The position numbers and the translations under genes are program-made. Positions 8,906 through 42,591 of a stretch of 42,591 nucleotides of DNA are shown here, piece by piece. The DNA comes from Pachysolen tannophilus NRRL Y-2460. Its lineage: Eukaryota. The stretch is taken from positions 1,514,724 through 1,557,314 of the forward strand of contig KV454011.1 of the NCBI GenBank assembly GCA_001661245.1, read 5' to 3'. The notes under the pieces are model-generated. The model had not been told where the DNA came from. It ran no database searches and saw nothing but the letters and a program-made list of their open reading frames with translations. Within the stretch, counting starts at the first letter, position 1. The number at the start of each line of letters is the position of its first letter.

Positions 8906-9483
8906 TTGAGTATTACTTAGCACAGCACACAGGAAAGTACTATTAAACTTACTCAAACGCAAAACGTAAAACCAATCAAGAAAAAGAAAAAGATTTTAAA
9001 CTTTTCCAGAAAATCAAAAAAAAAATTCCTTTGAGTATCTGAAACTTATACGGAAAGCTAGAAGAATAATAACTAATGAATGAATGAATGAATGTATAAG
9101 TGAATGAATTTTTTTTTTTTTTCACCAGTCAAGAGATGATGATTCATACCTGTATTCGGTTCCCAAAGGGTTATGTTAACTCAATCCTGTTTGTAGAGGT
9201 AAGCCACACATACAAAAACCCTTCCAAAACCATAAATCTTATATATCTCATGAATCTCATAAGAACATAAGAAACATCACAGCATTCGTCATTCCGGTTA
9301 GGCCAGGGACAATAGGAGACAGAAAAAAAAAAAAAAAGTTTTTTTTTTCTCAAAAAAAAATTTCTTAAGTACCTCTTTGGAGCTAAATCGGCGGCGGCGG
9401 CGGGGAGATGAAAAGGGAAAAAGGGCCTTGACCGGTCCTAAGATCCCGCTAAAAAAAAAAAAAAAAAAGCTAAATTAAATTCG

Positions 9484-10525: not shown

Positions 10526-12523
10526 ATGAAAGTGAGTCCTCCAATTGATCATCATTGGTTCATGATGTCTTGGAACTATATAATACAAAGATTTAAGAGA
10601 TTGAAACAAATTACAAAAGCGGTATTGATTATAGTACTGATATTAGAAGTTACATTTTTATATTCTTATAAATCTTTTAGTGATCATAGTGTTATTGTTA
10701 CAAAAGTAATAGAAGCTCCTGGACGTGGATTAAGTTATTCTCATTTAATAGATATTTTTGGAGATGATTTTGCAAAAGAAAGTTTAGATTATAAATGTAA
10801 AACTTATTTTGAAGAATTATATAATTATGATCCAAATTGGAATTTAGGTGATTTTAAAGGTTTAAATTTTAATGTTGATTTAGCAAAAAGTTCAAGTTTA
10901 AATAAATATATTCTGAAAATTAATAAAAAATTAAGAAAAGGTGTTCCATTAGGTGAAAGAAGAGAATTAAAAGAAAAAATTGCAGAAAAAGCACTGCAAG
11001 AAGAACAAGTTAATTTATTAATTGAAGATATGATTTATAATTCGGTTGGACATGTTAAAGTTTTTGGTAAATGTTTTATAGATGATAAAGATCGTGAATA
11101 TGGCAACTTTGATGATATAGAAACAAGATTACTTCCTTGGTTAAATAAAAGATTACCAACTTTTATTAGTTGGGATGGGAAAACAGTTGATGACCATTTA
11201 CCTATGACAAATGAACTTAAATTTTCATCATCATCATCAAATTCAAAAAGATACCTGCCTCAACCTTATATTGAAGGAACATCTTTTTTAAAATATTTAA
11301 GCAAAAATATGAGTGGTAAAGGTATTGTTATAAGTTGTAGTGATAGTTTAGTTGAAGAACTTGTTAGATTATTACGTGTTTTAAGATTTTTACATAATGA
11401 TTTACCAATAGAAATTGTTCATAAAGGTGATTTGGATCAAAATCATAGAAATACTTTGATTCAAGCTGCAAGAGATGATTTAATTTTATCTTCAGATATT
11501 AAAATTGATTATTCTCCTCAAGAAATTTGGTTTGTTGATGTTTCATCATGTATTAAACCAGATTTCTTGGCTAATGATACTTTTGAAACTTTTTCAAATA
11601 AATGGTTAGCTTCTCTTTTCACTTCATTTGATGAAATGATCTTATTAGATAGTGATGCTGTACCTTTTTTCAATCCAAGTTATTTTTTCACACATTTAAA
11701 AGGTTATTCTGAAACTGGTGGATATTTTTTCAAAGATAGAGAAATTGATCCTTTAGTTGAAGGTAGTTTTTTAGAATTTTATAAAAAATTATTACCTTCA
11801 GCAATGGATACAAAATTTTTCGAAATTCCTCAAACTACAAGTTCTACAAATAACAATAGATTATTTGGTAAGAAAGCTAAACATTTTATGGAAAGTGGGA
11901 TGGTACTATTAAAAAGATCGACTCATTTTAGTGGGTTATTAATGTCTGTTCATTTACAATTATGGGTTCCAACAAGTTCTCCAGTTCATGGAGATAAAGA
12001 ATTATTTTGGTTGGGTCAAGTTTTGGTTGGAAATGAAAATTTTAAATTCAATAAAAACCCTGCTGCTGCATCTGGTTTAGTAGATAATACTAAATTTAAA
12101 CTGGCAAAAGAAATTTGTTCGATTCAACCAACACATATTGCAGATGATGATCATACTTTATTATGGGTGAATAGTGGACTTCAAATTTGTAAAAAACAAA
12201 CTTGGAATAGAGATTATTTATTAAGACCTTATAGAAAGAAGAAACATACAGTTGAATCTTTGCAACAATATTTCGAATCTCCATTTTTGATAAATGGTGC
12301 TATTATCCCTCCAGATTCTTTGGATAAATATAATAATAAGCTGCGTGAACCAATTACAGGTTGGTCTAAAGCAGATAACTTGGGTTGCGAAAGATATTTC
12401 TTTTGTGCCAGAGACAGAGCAGGCAGTGCAGATGGTGATAGATATGCAAAAGGTATCTTGATTACGTATGATGAAGAAGAACAAATGAGATTTGCAAATA
12501 TATCTCTTGTTTGGGTTGGTTAA
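10526..12523 (+). CDS. Alpha-1,3-mannosyltransferase, GT71 (MNN1/MNT family), copy 1
   Basis: Type II membrane anchor, GKGIVIS, LPIEIVHKGDL, FSNKWLA, DxD motif (LLDSDAVP), FFKDRE, MESG and HGDKELFWLG. Confidence 0.9.
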   Translation: MKVSPPIDHHWFMMSWNYIIQRFKRLKQITKAVLIIVLILEVTFLYSYKSFSDHSVIVTKVIEAPGRGLSYSHLIDIFGDDFAKESLDYKCKTYFEELYNYDPNWNLGDFKGLNFNVDLAKSSSLNKYILKINKKLRKGVPLGERRELKEKIAEKALQEEQVNLLIEDMIYNSVGHVKVFGKCFIDDKDREYGNFDDIETRLLPWLNKRLPTFISWDGKTVDDHLPMTNELKFSSSSSNSKRYLPQPYIEGTSFLKYLSKNMSGKGIVISCSDSLVEELVRLLRVLRFLHNDLPIEIVHKGDLDQNHRNTLIQAARDDLILSSDIKIDYSPQEIWFVDVSSCIKPDFLANDTFETFSNKWLASLFTSFDEMILLDSDAVPFFNPSYFFTHLKGYSETGGYFFKDREIDPLVEGSFLEFYKKLLPSAMDTKFFEIPQTTSSTNNNRLFGKKAKHFMESGMVLLKRSTHFSGLLMSVHLQLWVPTSSPVHGDKELFWLGQVLVGNENFKFNKNPAAASGLVDNTKFKLAKEICSIQPTHIADDDHTLLWVNSGLQICKKQTWNRDYLLRPYRKKKHTVESLQQYFESPFLINGAIIPPDSLDKYNNKLREPITGWSKADNLGCERYFFCARDRAGSADGDRYAKGILITYDEEEQMRFANISLVWVG

Positions 12524-13306: not shown

Positions 13307-15280
13307 ATGTATAAGAGCTCTGTGTTTCCTATGTTATTACTCCCGAATTTGAGGAGACTTAAAAAAACCAGGCTAATCATCCTTTGCCTTACATTGGTTC
13401 TCAGTCAACTAGTGGTTTATAATTTGTATTTTACAATGTTCAATGAGCCGGCGCTCCTTTCTGCTGAAAAATTAGATGATCCCAGCATGACATATAACCA
13501 TTTAGTGGATTTGTTTGACGATGAAATATTTTCAAAAGAGACTTTAGAAAATAAGTGCCTTGGTTATTTTCAAGAATTACATGGTTATGATCCTAATTGG
13601 AATATAAGTAAATTGGAACATCTTACTTACCATAGAAAGATAGCAGATGAAATGGTAGATTTCAAGTCTTATTATAGAAAAGAATGTGAGAATGAATGGC
13701 AAAGGTTAGAGATTGTAGATAAAAAAATGAGACAGCAAGTATGTTCTAGTGTAAGATCTGCTATCTTGGGACAATTTAAAGAAAATAAAATGATTGAAAA
13801 TTCAATTTTTAACTATGTTGGACATTTGAAAGCTTATAACAAATGTTTTATTGAATCAAAAGAAACTGCTAGAAAATTCGGAATTGAACTGGATCGTACT
13901 GTTTTAAAAAACTTAGAACAAAGATTATTTCCTTGGTTAACTGGAAAACAACCCATTTTCACACGATGGACGGGTCAAGCGATTTCAAATTATATTCCCA
14001 AGATTAATAAAGATGGTGATATTACCAAATTAAAAGATAACACGGATCTGGATATTAATTCTTTTTGCATTACAGATTTGACTAATAACATGTATGGAAA
14101 GGGCATAGTAATGACATTTGGTGATCACCAATTAAAGGAAGCCATTAACGCGATAAAAGTATTGAGGTATTTGCGTAATGATTTACCAATTCAAATTATT
14201 CATAAAGGTGATTTATCTCAAGATTCACAAAACTCTTTAATTAGTATTGCTAGGGAAAACTTAACACTGATTGACCACTCCCTTCAAGAGTTATGGTTTG
14301 TAGATGTTTCCATTTCAATTCAAGAATCATATAAAAAAAATTTTGAAAATTTTGCAAATAAATGGTTATCAGTTTTATTCAATTCATTTGATGAAATTTT
14401 TTTTCTTGACCATGATGCTACAGTATTTTATCCTCCAGCTTATTTCTTTGATGAATTGCAACTGTATAAAGAAAATAATGCATTTTTCTTTAGAGATAGA
14501 GAATTCAAATATGATATAAAGGAAAATTATTTGAAATTTTACAAGAGCTTATTACCATCAACTTTAGATAATAAATTGTTTAAAATCGAAATGGACTCAT
14601 CAGTCTTAGAGACAAATTTCTTTAAAGGTCTTTCAAGACATTTCGTGGACAGTGGTGTAGTTTTAATGAAAAGATCAACTCATTTGGGAGGAATCTTAAC
14701 TGCAATCCATTTACAAATGTGGTCTCCAACTAGTGCCTCTGTGTATGGCGATAAAGAATTATTTTGGTTGGGACAAACAATCGTTGGTAATTCATTTGCT
14801 ATTAGTGAAAACCCAGCTGGTTCTTCTGGGTTGATAAAGGGCGATGGAATCACCAAAAAAACTCATGATATTTGTTCCTCTCAATTGACTCATATCTCTG
14901 ATATAGATAATCATTCAATACTTTGGATTAATGGTGGTTTGGAAAGCTGCAAAGTCACTCCTATGGAATTGGAAACAGCTGAGAACAACATCAATCCAGA
15001 AAATGTTGATCCCAATGAGAACGTTGTCCTGGAGAAGACTATGCTTAAAATAGAAGGTGTAATTATTCCTCCAGATGCAACAAATTCTTTTCCAAACTCA
15101 GATGGAGAACCAGAAACTGGTTGGAAATTTAAAATGAATCCTCCAACCTGTGGTGGCTACTCCTACTGTGCTTACGAAAAAGTCGGTCCTTTAAAGAACC
15201 CCGTTCTTGGGAGGTTAATAAGATATGATACACGGGAGGTAGAAAAATATAATAAACTAATTGAAGTTTGCTTTGCTTGA
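13307..15280 (+). CDS. Alpha-1,3-mannosyltransferase, GT71 (MNN1/MNT family), copy 2
   Basis: Same motif set: GKGIVMT, LPIQIIHKGDL, FANKWLS, LDHDA, FFRDRE and YGDKELFWLG. Confidence 0.9.
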   Translation: MYKSSVFPMLLLPNLRRLKKTRLIILCLTLVLSQLVVYNLYFTMFNEPALLSAEKLDDPSMTYNHLVDLFDDEIFSKETLENKCLGYFQELHGYDPNWNISKLEHLTYHRKIADEMVDFKSYYRKECENEWQRLEIVDKKMRQQVCSSVRSAILGQFKENKMIENSIFNYVGHLKAYNKCFIESKETARKFGIELDRTVLKNLEQRLFPWLTGKQPIFTRWTGQAISNYIPKINKDGDITKLKDNTDLDINSFCITDLTNNMYGKGIVMTFGDHQLKEAINAIKVLRYLRNDLPIQIIHKGDLSQDSQNSLISIARENLTLIDHSLQELWFVDVSISIQESYKKNFENFANKWLSVLFNSFDEIFFLDHDATVFYPPAYFFDELQLYKENNAFFFRDREFKYDIKENYLKFYKSLLPSTLDNKLFKIEMDSSVLETNFFKGLSRHFVDSGVVLMKRSTHLGGILTAIHLQMWSPTSASVYGDKELFWLGQTIVGNSFAISENPAGSSGLIKGDGITKKTHDICSSQLTHISDIDNHSILWINGGLESCKVTPMELETAENNINPENVDPNENVVLEKTMLKIEGVIIPPDATNSFPNSDGEPETGWKFKMNPPTCGGYSYCAYEKVGPLKNPVLGRLIRYDTREVEKYNKLIEVCFA

Positions 15281-17029: not shown

Positions 17030-18263
17030 CTAGAGAGAACTAATTTAAAAATTAAATAAACTACACTCCTCATTTTCATTTACGATTGCAATAATGACAT
17101 TTAGTCTCAATCACGAGTCTATTTCATTTTATTGTAATTTCAATAAAATTGAAAAAACCAAAAAAAAAAAAAACAATTTTTTTAAGCAGTTTCGGCTTTA
17201 GCCTATCAACCGTTGTAATTAAGTGCCATAGGATAGGATTATTTATTTCCGCAATATATACATATGTATACTATGTATCTAATAAGTATCTAGGTCTTAA
17301 TAAAAGCGTCGATCTTCTAAGTTATTTACAATCAAAATGCACTTTTTTTTTTCTCTTAATGTATGATCTGAGATTTTTTCAGTCTGAGCTTATTAAAACT
17401 CTTCTTGCCCACTCATATTTAGATTATTTAGATCAATCAAACCCATGGGGTATAATTAATGAAAAATAATATAATTTATAATAATATAATATAATACAGT
17501 TACATGATAAATTGTTACCATTAAGCTTTTTTACAGAATCAAAACTTAAAGAAGATGCAATTAGTTTCTAAAAGTTCAACAAATGATATAGCAGTATCTC
17601 ATGAATAGGTTTAATCAACTTTTTTTTCTGATTTTTTTTTTCATTTTTTTCACGCAGAGTTTCTTAGTCTTAAAAACAAACTTGAACTCAACTAAAGCTT
17701 CCTCGGACCGATCATAATGATCAACTACTATTGTTAGAAAAATATTGATGCTTAAGTAAGCCCCATCCCACCTGCAGTTCCCCGTGAACCATTTGGATCA
17801 ATCAGACTTCCCATTGCACGTTTTTATTACCTGTAGTTGGTTCTCCTGCATAAAGCAGGTCAACGAGCATAGATATTTCCTCTTTAGGAAAACGGTAGAT
17901 ACATACGAGCCACACGAAGTTTCACAATTTCAAGTATTTCAGTGAGATAATAATACTCGGATCAACATTGATGTTGATGCCTGACTATTGAATAAGTGCT
18001 TTAGGGGGAAAAGTGGAAGTTTTGATAATGGAAAGTATATACGATTTTGTAATTCGATGTAATTGAGTTGGGTTGCATTGTATTGTAGATATATATATAT
18101 AAAGACGCAAGAAAGTACTTTTTTTATTCTGTTCCTTTGGATTTTTCTTTCTTTTTTTCTGGCATCACAAATAGTTAGTTGAACTCTGTGCTTCTCTGCA
18201 TAAAATAACACAGATAGGTTGAAAACTTGGTAACTTTGAAACTTGGAAAGTTCTCTCGTTATC

Positions 18264-20249
18264 ATGAAAAGTTATTGGTTTTTGCGGGCGCTCAGTTTAT
18301 GCGCTTTTGTTATTCTGAAAGTATCATCCGCTGCAGTAGATGGGAGTGATCTGCCCTTCCCTCCAGAGACTTATGTCTTTTCACTTTGGAATATTAACTC
18401 CACTAACTCAAGCGGGAATGACAGTGCAATCATTAACAGCACTTTAACCAAATTAGAAGCTATTGGTAATGACACTTCACTTAGTGATTGTCAAAAATGT
18501 ACTGAGAGATTATCGTTAGGTAAGAATATTTCACTATCTAGACCAGATTTAGTACCAATTATTTGGACTAAATGGTGCACAGTTACTGGTGTTGACACTG
18601 CCATTGATTGTGAAGTTACATATTCAAGAAATACTGTTCAAAGAACAGGATATGGTACCGATTTCACCAATGTCTTACAATTAATGGATCCTTCTAGTTA
18701 TGATGGCCAATATTACTGTTACTACCAGGAAGATGTTTGTTCTTTACCACTGACACCAGAAGTTGATATTTCATATATGTGGCCTCAAAAACAACCTAAA
18801 CATTATATTGCACCAACTCCTGGTTCAGAAACTTTTAACGTCTTACACGTTAGTGATTTCCATATAGAATTGGATTATACCATTGGTGGAGAAGGTAACT
18901 GTTCTTCAGGTGGTATCTGCTGCACTCCACACTGTTACAGAGAAAAACCTTTCCCATCTGGTTATAATGAGACTTATTATAATACTTCAACTCAATCTTT
19001 CTATAACAGTTCTTATGTCAATGGAGAATTTGTTAAAGGAGATTTTGAATACTATTATAATTCTTCTATTTATCAACCAGCACATACTTTTGGTGAATAT
19101 GAATGTGATGCTCCTGAAGTGTTGATTAATAACTCATTGAAATCAATTACAGACTACCAAAAATTGAAAAATTTAAATTTCCAGTTTGCAATTTTTACAG
19201 GTGATTTAGTTGACCATGACGAAGACCAATATATTAGCTTTGAATCTACAGTTTTATCTGAAGAATATATTTACAGAGATTTAAAATATAGATTACAAAA
19301 TATATCAGTTTTCCCGGTTTTAGGAAATCATGACAGTTATCCTTATGGACAATTAGCACAAAATAGTTCTGGTCATTCAAACTTGTATAATTGGAATTAT
19401 GATTTAATGGCTGAAATGTGGTCAGATTTTGGTTGGTTAGATCTGAGTGCTGCTCAACAAGTCAGGTCTCATTACACTGGTTATGCAATTACTACACAAC
19501 AAGGGTTAAAAATCATTTCTTTAAACTCTAACAGTTGGTACGATGCTAATCTTTATACTTTCTGGAACTCAACTGAACCTGATACTTTTGGTCAATTTGA
19601 ATTTTTAGTTGATGAATTAGTCGCTAGTGAACTGATAGATCAAAGAGTTTGGATTATTGCTCATATTCCACCAATTGTTAGTGATATTTTACCAATCCCA
19701 GCTAAATTATTTTCAGATGTCATTAAAAGATTTTCCCCTTATACAATTGCTGGTATTTTCTATGGTCACACACATGAAGATCAATTTAGTATCTTGTACG
19801 CAGGTAATGGTACAGAAAAAACTCTGGAAAACGTTGTTAATCATGCATGGATTACCCAAGCTGTTACTCCACAAGTTCAAAAAAATCCAAGTTGGAGATA
19901 TTATGAAGTTGATAGCAAGACTTTTTCTATTATGGATTCACAGAATTTTTACTTCAAATTGAATGAGACATTTGACAATAGTGGGAATGAGCCAACTTGG
20001 GAATTTGAATACTCAGCAAGAGATGCATTTGACATTGATTGGCCTTCAACTTCTCCATTAAATGCAAGCTATTGGCATTTGGTTGCAGAAAAGATGAAAA
20101 ACAGTACTTACTATAATCAAATGTATACCAATTATGAGTACAGATTTTCACCTTATACACCAGACTGTTCTTCAACAACTGACTGTAAAGATAACTGGTG
20201 TTATGTTACTAGTTTTACATATGAGAGGTATCTGAACTGTACTAGCTAA
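18264..20249 (+). CDS. Secreted acid sphingomyelinase-like metallophosphoesterase
   Basis: The true ATG is probably 18264 (MKSYWFLRALSLCAF signal peptide); the ORF track starts at a TTG. Cys-rich saposin-like N-region, motifs SDFH, TGDLVDHD, GNHD, AHIP and GHTH, and many N-glycosylation sequons. Confidence 0.88.
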   Translation: MKSYWFLRALSLCAFVILKVSSAAVDGSDLPFPPETYVFSLWNINSTNSSGNDSAIINSTLTKLEAIGNDTSLSDCQKCTERLSLGKNISLSRPDLVPIIWTKWCTVTGVDTAIDCEVTYSRNTVQRTGYGTDFTNVLQLMDPSSYDGQYYCYYQEDVCSLPLTPEVDISYMWPQKQPKHYIAPTPGSETFNVLHVSDFHIELDYTIGGEGNCSSGGICCTPHCYREKPFPSGYNETYYNTSTQSFYNSSYVNGEFVKGDFEYYYNSSIYQPAHTFGEYECDAPEVLINNSLKSITDYQKLKNLNFQFAIFTGDLVDHDEDQYISFESTVLSEEYIYRDLKYRLQNISVFPVLGNHDSYPYGQLAQNSSGHSNLYNWNYDLMAEMWSDFGWLDLSAAQQVRSHYTGYAITTQQGLKIISLNSNSWYDANLYTFWNSTEPDTFGQFEFLVDELVASELIDQRVWIIAHIPPIVSDILPIPAKLFSDVIKRFSPYTIAGIFYGHTHEDQFSILYAGNGTEKTLENVVNHAWITQAVTPQVQKNPSWRYYEVDSKTFSIMDSQNFYFKLNETFDNSGNEPTWEFEYSARDAFDIDWPSTSPLNASYWHLVAEKMKNSTYYNQMYTNYEYRFSPYTPDCSSTTDCKDNWCYVTSFTYERYLNCTS

Positions 20250-20576
20250 TATTTGTTGCTTTCAACTCATAAGAAGTAACGACTCTAAGAAGAGTGGAGA
20301 TTATACTCCAATTACTTACTTTTTTTTCTTTCTTTCTATATTTTCATTTATTTTTTCTTCAACGAAACTTTTATTTTTCACTTTATTCCTGATTGACATA
20401 GGAAACCAAGTTAGATTCTAAATTTTTATTTTGCGATCACTTTTATTTTTTTTTTTATTTAAAAAATACTTTTTTTTTTCTCTTCAAAAACTTGTCATAT
20501 TTTACTATAGACTGCTAGAGCCATTAGACAGTATTTTTTTAGAAGTTAAAATATAATTTTTGATTCCAAGATCAAA

Positions 20577-20708
20577 TGTAGATGATAAAGAAGTGATGAC
20601 GAAGATGGCGGTCAAACCGACCTTTTCTCAATTCAGTCGGGGACTTTCCGACTGCCTCGAAGTGAAGCACCACCACTAGATGAATAAATCCCGACCTTTT
20701 CATCTACA
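20577..20708. mobile_element. 132-bp TG...CA element with 9-bp terminal inverted repeats (solo-LTR-like or MITE-like) abutting a tRNA gene
   Basis: Starts TGTAGATGA and ends TCATCTACA. About 45% GC (60/132) between very AT-rich flanks, with AATAAA near the right end. No target-site duplication is visible. Confidence 0.55.
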
Positions 20709-20709
20709 A

Positions 20710-20781
20710 TCCGATGTAGTGTAACGGCTAGCACGGTCCGCTTTCACCGGGCAAACCCGGGTTCGACTCCCGGCATCGGAA
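20710..20781 (+). tRNA. tRNA-Glu (anticodon TTC), intronless
   Basis: Acceptor stem TCCGATG/CATCGGA, anticodon arm GTCCG-CTTTCAC-CGGGC, T-arm with B box GGTTCGACTCC, and a downstream T-run terminator. Confidence 0.97.
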
Positions 20782-21263
20782 AATTTAATTTTTTATTAAT
20801 TTTTATAATTTTTATATCATCGATGATAATAATACAATTCGCTTACTAGACATCACATTTATATTGGTTCAAAACTAACCTTGTGGTTTTTCTGTAGTTT
20901 TGAAAACAAGTTTGATTTGAAAATGATTTTTTTTTTCTATTTCAGTTTTCTCAATCTAAAAAAGTTCTATTTACAAAAAAAAAGTTTTTTCAAGAAAAAA
21001 AAAATAAAGTTGATTGAACTGATTTAAGAAAAATAAGTCTAGATAAGCAAAAAACGGGAAGAAATACAGAAAGAAAGTTTTTTTTTTTCTATAAGTTTTC
21101 TGCTTTTCAAAAATTTTGGTAACGTGAATCATAATAACGTCAAAACACAAACAAACAAACAAACAAAAAGAAAAAAAAATTAAAACATGAATATCAAAAT
21201 GAAAATCACAAACATTAATGTAAACATTTTCAAGATTAAAAAAAAAGATATATTTCATTTTCA

Positions 21264-22721
21264 TTATTTTGTCCTTGTTAAAATTGAGTTAGTCAAAAAT
21301 TCTAATGCTGAACGTGCATCACTATTTGGTAAAATACTCAAATTTTGTAAAGCACGATTACAATAATCTTGGGCCATCAGTCTAGTTTGTTGAACTCCAT
21401 TACAAGCTTTAACAGCCAGTCTTGCAGTTTCAACATCACCTGGTTCGCTAAACTTTCTACCAATCATCGGTCCTAGCTCTGGTCTTTCTTTCCAAGCATA
21501 CAAGACTGGAGCAGTAGCTAATCCTAATTTTAGATCTGCTCCTGAAGGTTTACCCAATTCTTCATCACTTCTAGTATAATCTAACATATCGTCAACCATT
21601 TGGAAACATAATCCCAAATTTCTTCCAAATTGATAGCAGTTTTCCACAACATCTAATTGTGCACCTGAAAGGATTGCTGCTGACCTTGCCGATTTGGACA
21701 TCAACGATGCAGTTTTTAAATAAGTTTTGTGTATATAATATTCAAATGCAGCATTTACATTTTCCTCATGAGTTATATTGGCTGGGTTTCTTGTTGGGAC
21801 AACAGAATATTCATGAAGTTGAACGGGCACTTTCCCAGTTGCTTGTGGTATTTGTTTATCACCTTCTACAACATTGGTATTTGGCTGGAAAACTGTATTT
21901 TTCAATTGCATGAATTCTCCTTCAACCAAATTTGCTATTGTCATAGACATTAATTCAATAACTTCAGGATTTCTTAACCTTGCAATGGCAACTGAAGCTC
22001 TACCTAATAAAAAATCACCTGCTAAAATAGCCATCTTATTTGTAAAAGCGATATTACCACTTGGTCTTCCTCTTCTAGAATCTGAAAAATCTATAACGTC
22101 ATCATGTAATAAAGATGCTGTATGGATCATTTCTACAATTTCACCTAATCTTCTCTGTTTTGGTAATATCCCATTTTGTTTATCCAATTCTGGCAATTTA
22201 CCCAATGGTTTAGTTAATGGGTCTAACACAATACTAGGATTGATACCATGTAAAATGGCTAATGGTGAAATCGAATCTATGACACTTCTACCTGCAATTG
22301 TCGGTTTGCTCGGAAGACCAGGGAAATTTGGTTGAGTCGTAACATCCAGTTCATCAATTGGAACTCTATTTCTTTGTTCAATTGGAATCTTTGAAAGTGC
22401 TTTTGATAATAGTAAAACAATTAATGGTCTAACATTTTTACCTTCAGCCTCAAAATAATAAGATGATACTCTATTTAAAGTAGGATGACCTGAACTGATT
22501 AAACCAGCAATATTTTTCAGCAATGAAGACATTTCATTACTAACAATAGAAAAAGGATCAGTAAAAGATGATTTCTTAGAAGGTTGCACCAACTTTTCTG
22601 CAGTCTCAATCGCAGTTGCCCATGAAGATCCATTTCGAGAGTATCTAGCAATTGGAGCAATTATCAATTTGAAGTTTCTAGAGTTTCTAGACAGAAACCC
22701 TCTGTGTAAAAATCTCAACAT
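21264..22721 (-). CDS. COQ1: Trans-polyprenyl diphosphate synthase (ubiquinone side chain)
   Basis: Likely ATG at 22721 (MLRFLHRGF presequence). EMIHTASLLHDDVID...RRG, YLKTA, FQMVDDMLD and GKPSGADL. Confidence 0.96.
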   Translation of the reverse strand: MLRFLHRGFLSRNSRNFKLIIAPIARYSRNGSSWATAIETAEKLVQPSKKSSFTDPFSIVSNEMSSLLKNIAGLISSGHPTLNRVSSYYFEAEGKNVRPLIVLLLSKALSKIPIEQRNRVPIDELDVTTQPNFPGLPSKPTIAGRSVIDSISPLAILHGINPSIVLDPLTKPLGKLPELDKQNGILPKQRRLGEIVEMIHTASLLHDDVIDFSDSRRGRPSGNIAFTNKMAILAGDFLLGRASVAIARLRNPEVIELMSMTIANLVEGEFMQLKNTVFQPNTNVVEGDKQIPQATGKVPVQLHEYSVVPTRNPANITHEENVNAAFEYYIHKTYLKTASLMSKSARSAAILSGAQLDVVENCYQFGRNLGLCFQMVDDMLDYTRSDEELGKPSGADLKLGLATAPVLYAWKERPELGPMIGRKFSEPGDVETARLAVKACNGVQQTRLMAQDYCNRALQNLSILPNSDARSALEFLTNSILTRTK

Positions 22722-31704: not shown

Positions 31705-32373
31705 TCACAAACGACGTTGTCTTGAAGCTCTAACACCACCGAATTTTAATTTAGAATTATCTGAAATTCTTGTAATTTTTTCTCTAATATTTGTACCTTC
31801 TTTACCTAAAAATGCATCAACAAAACCTTTTCTTCCCTTTCCAAATAATTTCATTATAACTTCAATATTTTTATCTAAATAATTTCTTTGTTCTATAGTT
31901 TGAAACATTTTAGCAGCAAGTTGATATCCAGCTTCATATTCACCTCTTTGAGCTTTTCTAAAACCAACACACCCTGTAGAAAGACTTATTTTAACTTTTT
32001 GTGGTAATTGGAGATAATATAAAGTTTTATCCTTATGTGATAATTGTGGATTATTTTTTTCAAAATTTTTATCTTCAACAACAGCTGCTAATGTCATATG
32101 AGTATTATTTTTAGCAAATGTACAATGAAGAATATATTTAACAACTTCTTCTCTTTTCTTTAACTTGATACTATCATCCAAATTTTTATTTTGTAATGAA
32201 TTTTGTTGTTGTTGTTGTTGATCAGCAATAGACCTAAACGTTACTGGTTGTTGTAATCTTTTATCATTTAACAATTTTACGGATGAAGAAAAACTTCTTG
32301 TAATTTCAAAAAAATTTTTCTTGGGTAAAGATATCAATCTGCAAGAATTGGATAACGAATATCTTAAAGACAT
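31705..32373 (-). CDS. MRPS18: Mitochondrial ribosomal protein uS11m
   Basis: Likely ATG at 32373 ([12 protein letters not shown] presequence). [30 protein letters not shown] and [12 protein letters not shown]. Confidence 0.9.
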
Positions 32374-32530
32374 TATCACAAATAGATTGATCAAAAAAAT
32401 ATTTAGATAATAACTAAAAAACAAACTATATATATTATATAACTTTAAACTTGTTATTTCTTTAGTTTTCATTTAACATTGAAAAGTTTTGTTTTAGATT
32501 CAAAGAAATGTCGTGTCAATAGTGGAGCAT

Positions 32531-32646
32531 AGAAGTACAGAAGTACAGAAGTACACGACTTTGTTTTTTTTTTATCTTTTGAGTTACCTCATGAATTATC
32601 TCTGCATGGGCCCCTCTTCAGGGGCCCCCTCTGCATGGCCCTCTTC
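32531..32646. repeat. (AGAAGTAC)x3 plus a GC-rich imperfect direct repeat containing CCCCT/AGGGG
   Basis: Tandem 8-mer at 32531-32554. CTCTGCATGG(G)CCC(C)TCTTC occurs twice within 32600-32646. Confidence 0.75.
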
Positions 32647-32813
32647 TAGCCTCAAAAGGGTGGCAACGGAACCACAAATTGGGCGGACACTGATGGGAAA
32701 ACCTAAGCGGAAGAATTTCACAAAAAAAAAAAAGAGAAAAAATCTGTAAAAGTAATAGAATCAATTAGTAGTAGCATTAACAGTAACACTTTACTATCTA
32801 TATAAATCTATCA

Positions 32814-42537: not shown

Positions 42538-42545
<8 letters not shown>

Positions 42546-42591
<46 letters not shown>
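42546..42591. repeat. Poly(T) tract of at least 46 nt at the window end
   Basis: Uninterrupted T run. Shorter poly(A/T), (TA)n and (AAT)n tracts are frequent in the intergenic regions. Confidence 0.9.

Follow-up and report, generated by a model that had tools for sequence, protein, structure and literature searches.

The window, i.e. the whole stretch of 42.6 kb of DNA that was analyzed, derives from an AT-rich budding yeast, has a GC content of about 30% and is gene-dense, with open reading frames (ORFs) that lack introns. Within the window, the GC content averages 32% in the ORFs of at least 120 aa and 25% in the remaining DNA. Using Pfam, 17 of the 19 ORFs of at least 200 aa could be assigned to ordinary fungal housekeeping families, including tubulin, aspartate kinase, MNN1-type mannosyltransferases, neutral trehalase, malate dehydrogenase and ribosomal protein L23/L25, while the other two match nothing; none of the 19 contains a gag, protease, reverse transcriptase, integrase or transposase domain. 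Four proteins of the window, including the product of a 43-aa minus-strand ORF, were searched in a collection of 15 billion proteins and gave no exact match, so that close sequenced relatives of this yeast seem to be missing from the collections covered.

The region of interest is located between two convergently oriented genes (Table 1). The upstream gene codes for a PPN1-like metallophosphatase whose best relatives are found in budding yeasts of several families with identities of 56–58%, and the downstream gene codes for a polyprenyl synthetase. Since both genes converge on the region between them, a Pol II promoter of either neighbor is not expected there. The intergenic region harbors the only tRNA gene of the window, a tRNA-Glu(UUC) gene of 72 nt, and adjacent to it a GC-rich block that is closed by an inverted repeat. 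Apart from a 27-aa ORF at 20596–20679 and a low-complexity 97-aa ORF, neither of which appears plausible, no ORFs are present in this region. The other GC-rich non-coding blocks of the window that we inspected (9370–9440, 17750–17870 and 32580–32700) lie upstream of gene starts and resemble promoter elements with repeated motifs. As these blocks are found at gene starts while the genes flanking the block next to the tRNA converge, this last block should belong with the tRNA gene or represent a unit of its own.

Table 1. Position and characteristics of the features at the tRNA-Glu(UUC) locus (position 1 is the first nucleotide of the window)
Feature	Position	Strand	Remarks
PPN1-like metallophosphatase, upstream neighbor	18264..20249	+	Pfam Metallophos; 3′ end faces the block
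GC-rich block	20577..20708	.	132 bp, closed by an inverted repeat
Left arm, TGTAGATGA[T]AAAG	20577..20590	.	13 bp with one bulged T, pairing with 20696–20708
GTGATGA	20593..20599	+	Matches the box C consensus RUGAUGA; underlies noise-level Rfam matches to archaeal C/D sRNAs
Internal hairpin 1	20597..20630	+	In the MFE and centroid structures; z −2.6 when folded alone
Direct repeat CCGACCTTTTC, copy 1	20617..20627	+	11 nt, 100% identity
Internal hairpin 2, CAGTCGGGGACTTTCCGACTG	20634..20654	+	In the MFE and centroid structures; z −3.2
AATAAA	20683..20688	+	Starts 27 nt and ends 22 nt upstream of the mature tRNA
Direct repeat CCGACCTTTTC, copy 2	20691..20701	+	11 nt, 100% identity
Right arm, CTTTTCATCTACA	20696..20708	.	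Includes the tRNA 5′ leader and the region in which Pol III is expected to start
Single A, spacer between block and tRNA	20709	+	Sole unpaired residue linking both domains of the co-fold
tRNA-Glu(UUC)	20710..20781	+	Intact, no intron; ARAGORN; Rfam RF00005, 60.7 bits (cut-off 29 bits)
T6 run	20789..20794	+	Likely Pol III terminator
Polyprenyl synthetase, downstream neighbor	21264..22721	−	Pfam polyprenyl_synt, 2e-62; 3′ end faces the block

Boundaries of the block and its position at the tRNA gene

A first-pass annotation of this DNA had described a perfect 9-bp inverted repeat, extendable to 13 bp, which encloses a stretch of about 45% GC in AT-rich flanks, carries an AATAAA close to its right end and is separated from the tRNA by one A. 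Each of these observations was reproduced in our analysis. The 5′ end of the block, TGTAGATGA (20577–20585), pairs perfectly over 9 bp with its 3′ end, TCATCTACA (20700–20708), and the pairing extends to 13 bp when one bulged T is allowed. A repeat search additionally delineated looser arms of 21 nt (20577–20597 and 20688–20708), which are complementary to 76%. The GC content of the block amounts to 45.5%, whereas values of 22.5% and 20% were obtained for the 200 bp preceding it and the 200 bp following the tRNA, respectively, and both the AATAAA and the single A are found at the positions listed in Table 1.

Inverted repeats of this kind are common in the window. Counting perfect nine-mer inverted repeats with at least three G/C and a spacer of 50–300 nt, we obtained 38 in 42.6 kb, which form about 25 separate pairs, i.e. 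approximately one per 1.7 kb, so that the pair alone is unremarkable. A pair that ends no more than 4 nt from the start of the sole tRNA gene is expected about 0.002 times, an estimate that was made post hoc. Both arms furthermore coincide with the edges of the GC-rich island, and among the 13,841 windows of 132 nt located outside the ORFs of at least 120 aa only 1.5% reach a GC content of 45%. The block is a discrete, bounded and internally organized unit of 132 bp with a composition foreign to its surroundings.

Pol III initiates about 10–12 nt upstream of the mature tRNA according to PMC5911963 and PMC5006619. Applied to the tRNA-Glu(UUC) gene, this start geometry suggests that the right arm encodes the pre-tRNA leader, and the block as a whole would now supply the entire upstream region of the tRNA gene, including the TFIIIB-binding region and the leader. 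No run of at least five T is present from 20562 to 20788, i.e. ahead of the T6 run downstream of the tRNA. A TATAA is located upstream of the block at 20552–20556. For the downstream gene of tandem tRNA pairs, GC-rich upstream DNA has been reported to penalize TFIIIB assembly (PMC2566860). If this penalty were valid here, the tRNA-Glu gene may be weakly expressed or read from further upstream.

Repeated words, hairpins and predicted folding

The interior of the block is rich in repeated words. TAGATGA occurs three times, namely at both ends in inverted orientation and once more at 20677 just inside the right end, GATGA is present in four copies, and CCGAC likewise occurs four times (forward at 20617, 20648 and 20691, reverse at 20636), so that the block contains 4 of the 11 CCGAC words of the window. 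The counts of TAGATGA, GATGA and CCGAC were reached by none of 5000 shuffles. Moreover, an 11-nt direct repeat is present in two identical copies, and two GC-rich hairpins are predicted (Table 1), the first of which contains the palindrome CGG-N5-CCG at 20609, while the second is itself a palindrome, CGG-N7-CCG at 20638. Such CGG-Nx-CCG palindromes with spacers of 3–12 nt are found only seven times in the window outside of the block and the tRNA. Judging by the repeated words and the GC-rich hairpins, the block is non-random sequence.

When folded as RNA, the plus strand of the block reaches −39.4 kcal/mol, corresponding to a z-score of −3.76 with none of 200 shuffles folding as well, and the minus strand shows a z-score of −2.78. 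The interior folds only slightly better than its shuffles (z = −1.6) once the terminal arms are omitted; hence the folding signal stems mostly from the terminal stem and the two hairpins. Co-folding of the block with the tRNA predicts two independent domains, the closed block and the cloverleaf, which are joined by the single A.

The comparison with known families yielded no assignment. No Rfam family scored above its gathering cut-off inside the block, the best match, to archaeal C/D models, being 12.3 bits compared to a cut-off of 42 bits (E about 1), and the hammerhead and other ribozymes were discarded because no Rfam match was obtained. An H/ACA snoRNA was likewise rejected, as no two-hairpin H-ACA layout is recognizable by eye. 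In addition, Pfam identified no family in seven open stretches of 21–43 aa that were tested from the six frames of the block, and a coding fragment was rejected on this ground.

Search for insertion traces and relatives, and comparison with known mobile elements

The first-pass annotation had also stated that a target-site duplication (TSD) is lacking, and this is borne out by our search, in which no direct repeat of 4–6 bp was seen to flank the TG/CA ends. None of the five bases agree between the flanks TCAAA and ATCCG, no repeat of at least 4 bp is in register with the ends, and neither an 8-bp nor a TA duplication is present at the ends of the block. If the ends are moved one base inward (GTAGATGA...TCATCTAC), an 8-bp inverted repeat with the flanks AAT/AAT remains, which is a weak match. 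A shifted register yields a 6-bp ATGTAG/ATGTAG match, which is also weak and forms part of a direct repeat with 9 of 11 identical positions between 20571–81 and the spacer A plus tRNA bases 1–10. When the upstream 300 nt were shuffled, a repeat of this quality appeared 73 times in 3000 trials. It results largely from the inverted repeat together with a 5-bp complementarity between the leader (CTACA) and tRNA bases 6–10 (TGTAG), and we regard it as weak. It is insignificant once the inverted repeat is allowed for and was thus rejected as an 11-bp TSD. The missing TSD would point to an old insertion, to recombination between two copies or to true ends that do not lie exactly at the TG/CA bases.

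Neither a second copy of the block nor, apart from low-complexity tracts, any dispersed repeat was found in the 42.6-kb window. Beyond the window, an 18-mer from the right end of the block matched six phage contigs, yet only 20 nt correspond and these lie inside coding sequence, which marks the matches as chance. The 21-mer of the hairpin had no match in prokaryote genomes, and a blastn search of the block against plasmids and phages produced no match either. The tRNA-Glu gene was used as an anchor with the same outcome: no match was obtained in prokaryote genomes or viral contigs, and both its exact 72-mer and its degenerate 5′ half remained without matches in metagenome contigs. Stretches of the locus searched in the full text of published papers did not match.

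Like the block, the solo LTRs of Ty3 (sigma) and of the other Ty3/gypsy elements Tj1, Tyl3/Ylt1/Tyl6 and beta/Tca8 have TG...CA ends with short inverted repeats, lie directly upstream of a Pol III gene and supply its upstream region (PMC5911963). Ty3 inserts 1–4 bp upstream of the Pol III start (PMC5911963), and the other tRNA-targeting yeast families tabulated in PMC5911963 and PMC5006619 are found 5–30 bp away. In contrast to the Ty3/gypsy solo LTRs, the block ends 1 nt from the mature tRNA 5′ end, i.e. inside the expected leader, and is accompanied by neither an internal region nor a second copy in the window. The Candida albicans LTRs compared here comprise 192–685 bp (beta, 395 bp) and are flanked by TSDs of 4–5 bp (PMC4139406), whereas the block measures 132 bp and lacks a TSD. 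Reading the sequence that adjoins the block, we recognized neither a primer-binding site (PBS) nor a polypurine tract (PPT).

Very short LTR elements are represented by the non-autonomous TRIMs, including Helenus, Ajax and Cassandra, which bear Pol III promoters; TRIMs are known from fungi as well as from other organisms, and they show an association with sequences of small-RNA genes (PMC10886601). While TRIMs consist of two LTRs around a PBS and a PPT with TSDs of 4–5 bp (PMC10886601), a single block without any of these is present here, and the tRNA is a genuine gene outside of the block rather than a tRNA-like part of an LTR. According to PMC5911963 and PMC5006619, the only tRNA-targeting element that docks this close is NLTR-A of Dictyostelium purpureum. 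This is a non-LTR element of an amoeba, however, whereas the block has inverted ends and carries neither a poly(A) tail nor a remnant of a reverse transcriptase.

Among class II elements, mRover1, a hAT-type yeast MITE, resembles the block in being short, non-autonomous and bounded by terminal inverted repeats (TIRs), with repeated subterminal words and a strong DNA secondary structure, and some copies of this type lack TSDs (PMC4316626). The combination of TIRs and subterminal repeated words that characterizes MITEs is thus present in the block. mRover1 elements differ from it by a mean length of 356 bp, TIRs of 18–20 bp, TSDs of 8 bp and no described association with tRNA genes (PMC4316626), as opposed to arms of 9–13 bp and the lack of an 8-bp TSD in the block. 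A hAT element was rejected owing to this missing duplication, and for the superfamily-specific duplications of class II elements (TA, TWA or 8 bp, for instance) the AAT/AAT flanks obtained with ends moved inward are the sole candidate. Helitrons end in the consensus TC...CTRR, to which the ends of the block do not correspond by eye, and a Helitron was therefore rejected as well.

Small structured RNAs that adjoin a tRNA are known from dicistronic Pol III genes such as the Yarrowia tRNA-5S and tRNA-RUF70 genes and the plant tRNA-snoRNA genes, in which the RNA lies within a few nucleotides of the tRNA and is released by tRNA-processing enzymes (PMC2566860). In the dicistronic genes described in PMC2566860 the tRNA leads and carries the promoter, whereas it trails at the present locus.

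Possible origins of the block and their meaning

The best reading of the block, to which we tentatively assign a probability of about 0.35, is that a small mobile element bounded by terminal inverted repeats has left a relic here, which has become the upstream region of the tRNA gene. Either a miniature element of the LTR type, represented by a solo terminal repeat, or a DNA element resembling a MITE could account for such a relic. A small mobile element would have arrived by insertion directly against the tRNA-Glu(UUC) gene, and the latter would keep working via its internal A and B boxes. TFIIIB would assemble on the right third of the block and Pol III would start inside the right arm, giving rise to a pre-tRNA leader that is encoded by the element.

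This origin is supported by inverted ends that lie exactly at the GC step of a stretch to which only 1.5% of the windows compare in GC content, by arrays of TAGATGA and of CCGAC (the latter in both orientations) that exceed 5000 shuffles, by the location between convergent genes, where the block cannot be expected to serve as the Pol II promoter of a neighbor, and by the dissimilarity of the block to any tRNA, rRNA or other Rfam family and, in the stretches tested, to any Pfam family. Transposon ends typically carry such subterminal arrays of words, as exemplified by the hexamer repeats of the yeast Rover elements (PMC4316626), retroelements of yeasts and amoebae classically insert upstream of tRNA genes (PMC5911963, PMC5006619), and with Dp_NLTR-A a precedent is described for a non-LTR element at 2–6 bp from the mature tRNA end (PMC5006619). 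Against a mobile origin speak the lack of a 4–6 bp TSD at the TG/CA ends, of a second copy or dispersed repeat in the window and of any gag, pol, integrase or transposase domain in the 19 larger ORFs. A GC content of 45% is also high for neutral or mobile DNA in a background of 32% and 25%, which would favor a very recent arrival of the block or else selection acting on its structure. To our knowledge, position −1 moreover fits no integrase-TFIIIB geometry, and this counts against a mobile relic as well.

The first-pass annotation had proposed an unusually short solo LTR or non-autonomous element of a tRNA-targeting family that inserts closer than Ty3 and supplies the upstream region of the tRNA. 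What stands of this proposal is the discrete, bounded unit with TG...CA inverted ends, which, judging from the Pol III geometry, would indeed provide the tRNA upstream region. In contrast, the tests on the TSD, the copies, gag-pol, the PBS and PPT and the position lean against a recent Ty3-like solo LTR, and the missing duplication and the odd position make an ultra-short LTR from a family docking closer than Ty3 less likely.

A single copy without a duplication would be accounted for if the block were captured filler DNA of mitochondrial, cDNA or other origin that was patched into a break beside the tRNA gene, or a chance product, i.e. unique, drifted sequence in which the inverted ends are coincidental. 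The single copy within the window, the lack of a TSD and the abundance of 9-bp inverted repeats in the window are all consistent with this explanation, and nuclear insertions of mitochondrial DNA in yeasts have a size range that includes 132 bp and occur near tRNA genes and LTRs. We nevertheless consider filler DNA or a chance product, which ranks second among the readings, unlikely. The word repeats and the two hairpins lie far beyond chance, the arms coincide with the GC step, the block shows neither an rRNA nor a tRNA signal nor a Pfam signal in the frames tested, and translation with two mitochondrial codes (tables 3 and 4) leaves only one open frame, with nothing resembling a mitochondrial protein visible by eye in any frame. 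A GC content of 45% is also unusual for the mitochondrial DNA of an AT-rich yeast. The same word repeats, including GATGA, could alternatively belong to a non-mobile array of protein-binding sites which serves an unannotated transcript or the chromatin at the tRNA gene. Its two CGG-Nx-CCG palindromes, which are rare elsewhere in the window, fit what we take to be the site grammar of fungal zinc-cluster factors, and the promoter-like appearance of the other GC-rich non-coding blocks with their repeated motifs points in the same direction. The block is, however, situated between two gene 3′ ends with no obvious gene to serve, and the intergenic region is devoid of plausible ORFs; in addition, we know of no Pol III genes that use such upstream sites. 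We regard a binding array as improbable.

The predicted folding raises a further explanation, according to which the block is a structured small RNA gene of about 132 nt that is joined to the tRNA and starts at or near 20577–20582. RNase P cleavage at 20709/20710 would generate the 3′ end of this RNA, as is known for the RNase P-made 3′ end of MALAT1-mascRNA, and the 13-bp stem that joins its two ends would protect the RNA. Transcription could be accomplished by Pol III via the TATAA upstream of the block, or by Pol II with the complex on the tRNA gene acting as a roadblock. In line with this explanation, the terminal stem stops one base before the RNase P site and the co-fold comprises two domains, the z-score of −3.76 was equaled by none of the 200 shuffles, the block combines 45% GC with a non-coding background of 25% GC and a tRNA that is GC-rich, too, and no run of at least five T interrupts the path from 20562 to the T6 run. 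The order GAUGA, GAUGA, CCGA, CCGA, GAUGA, CCGA within a terminal stem also recalls the boxes C, D′, C′ and D, and the putative RNA may form a particle resembling the box C/D type in which CCGA replaces CUGA. Its segment GCACCACCAC (20666–20675) may be complementary to a conserved segment of the 18S rRNA, although chance alone would give about every second block of this length a 10-nt match somewhere in rRNA. The penalty on TFIIIB assembly reported for GC-rich upstream DNA (PMC2566860) would likewise favor an upstream start.

Conversely, no Rfam family rises above noise, with 12.3 bits at best, and while GUGAUGA and a terminal stem are present, a box D of the sequence CUGA is missing from the plus strand, where CCGA stands at both candidate sites, and the spacer between C′ and D measures 7 nt. 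By eye, the block does not conform to an H/ACA layout, its interior reaches a z-score of only −1.6 once the terminal stem is left out, and the opposite strand folds about as well, as would be expected of DNA palindromes. In the dicistronic Pol III genes covered by PMC2566860 the tRNA leads and never trails. On balance we regard a small RNA gene with an RNase P-generated, stem-protected 3′ end as improbable, and the specific arrangement of a small RNA first and a tRNA second, yielding a stable RNA of about 132 nt with an RNase P-made 3′ end, as slightly less probable still.

Finally, the block might be the decayed upstream tRNA gene of a former tandem pair or a tRNA-derived SINE head. Its left edge, ATCAAATGTAG, matches the tRNA 5′ end, ATCCGATGTAG, in 9 of 11 positions, and CGGTCAAACC takes up almost the position within the block that CGGGCAAACC has within the tRNA. 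However, the local alignment score of the block with the tRNA equals the mean of the shuffles, 1092 of 2000 of which score as well, the collinear score was reached by 1105 of 3000 shuffles, and the 9-of-11 repeat appeared in 73 of 3000. With an alignment at chance level, and since neither ARAGORN nor the Rfam tRNA model reports a match within the block, we rejected a tRNA relic or SINE head, which we deem extremely improbable.

The meaning of the locus depends on which of these readings applies. Filler DNA would make the block an ordinary scar. If it were an RNA gene, it would reveal a mechanism, new for yeast, by which the end of a small RNA is formed, in an arrangement that is the reverse of the dicistronic Pol III genes described in PMC2566860 and a budding-yeast analogue of MALAT1-mascRNA. 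If the block is a mobile element, as we tentatively favor, no tRNA-associated element of the yeast families in the reviews and tables cited above would be shorter or lie closer to its tRNA. Every transcript of tRNA-Glu(UUC) would then start inside the element, and the locus would be well suited to testing the amount of upstream sequence on which a Pol III gene depends.

Short reading frames and the leader of the tRNA gene

Two short ORFs overlap the GC-rich inverted-repeat block that precedes the tRNA-Glu(UUC) gene (see the table). The plus-strand ORF ends in a C-terminal HHH, and AATAAA lies 4 nt past its stop. Neither the open frame containing this ORF nor the minus-strand ORF gave a match in Pfam, and the sequence of the latter was absent from the protein collection in which it was looked up. 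The block closes with the pentamer CTACA, which is complementary to TGTAG at bases 6–10 of the tRNA (20704–20720). Six bases separate the two, and the pre-tRNA leader could thus base-pair with the tRNA's 5′ portion. Given its short length, this complementarity is probably due to chance.

Open reading frames discussed here
Feature	Position	Strand	Length	Pfam	Relation
Short ORF	20596–20679	+	27 aa	no match (open frame)	overlaps block
Short ORF	20575–20703	−	43 aa	no match	overlaps block
MNN1-type mannosyltransferase	10526–12523	+	665 aa	Mannosyl_trans3	
MNN1-type mannosyltransferase	13307–15280	+	657 aa	Mannosyl_trans3	
Minus-strand ORF	31705–32472	−		no match	32580–32700 lies 110–230 bp upstream of its start

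A/T tracts across the window

The repeat search found long homopolymers of A or T, along with (TA)n tracts, in nearly every intergenic region of the window; these account for all of the 'repeat families' it returned and may limit assembly. The window itself terminates in a run of T longer than 45 nt (42540–42591).

GC-rich non-coding stretches

The two mannosyltransferase genes are paralogues arranged in tandem on the same strand. The divergent promoter region between the first of them and the aspartate-kinase gene (minus strand) harbors a (GGC)n-like run, GGCGGCGGCGGCGGGG, within a GC-rich island (9370–9440) bordered by A17 and A19 tracts. Another non-coding stretch (17750–17870, 42–50% GC) is located upstream of the PPN1-like metallophosphatase gene; Rfam, searched at the gathering threshold, revealed no family in it. 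The stretch may be a promoter element, or else a small RNA not yet recognised as such. The non-coding stretch at 32580–32700 is very GC-rich (57–65%), contains direct repeats of CTCTGCATGG(G)CCC(C)TCTTC and is probably a promoter element carrying repeated factor sites.
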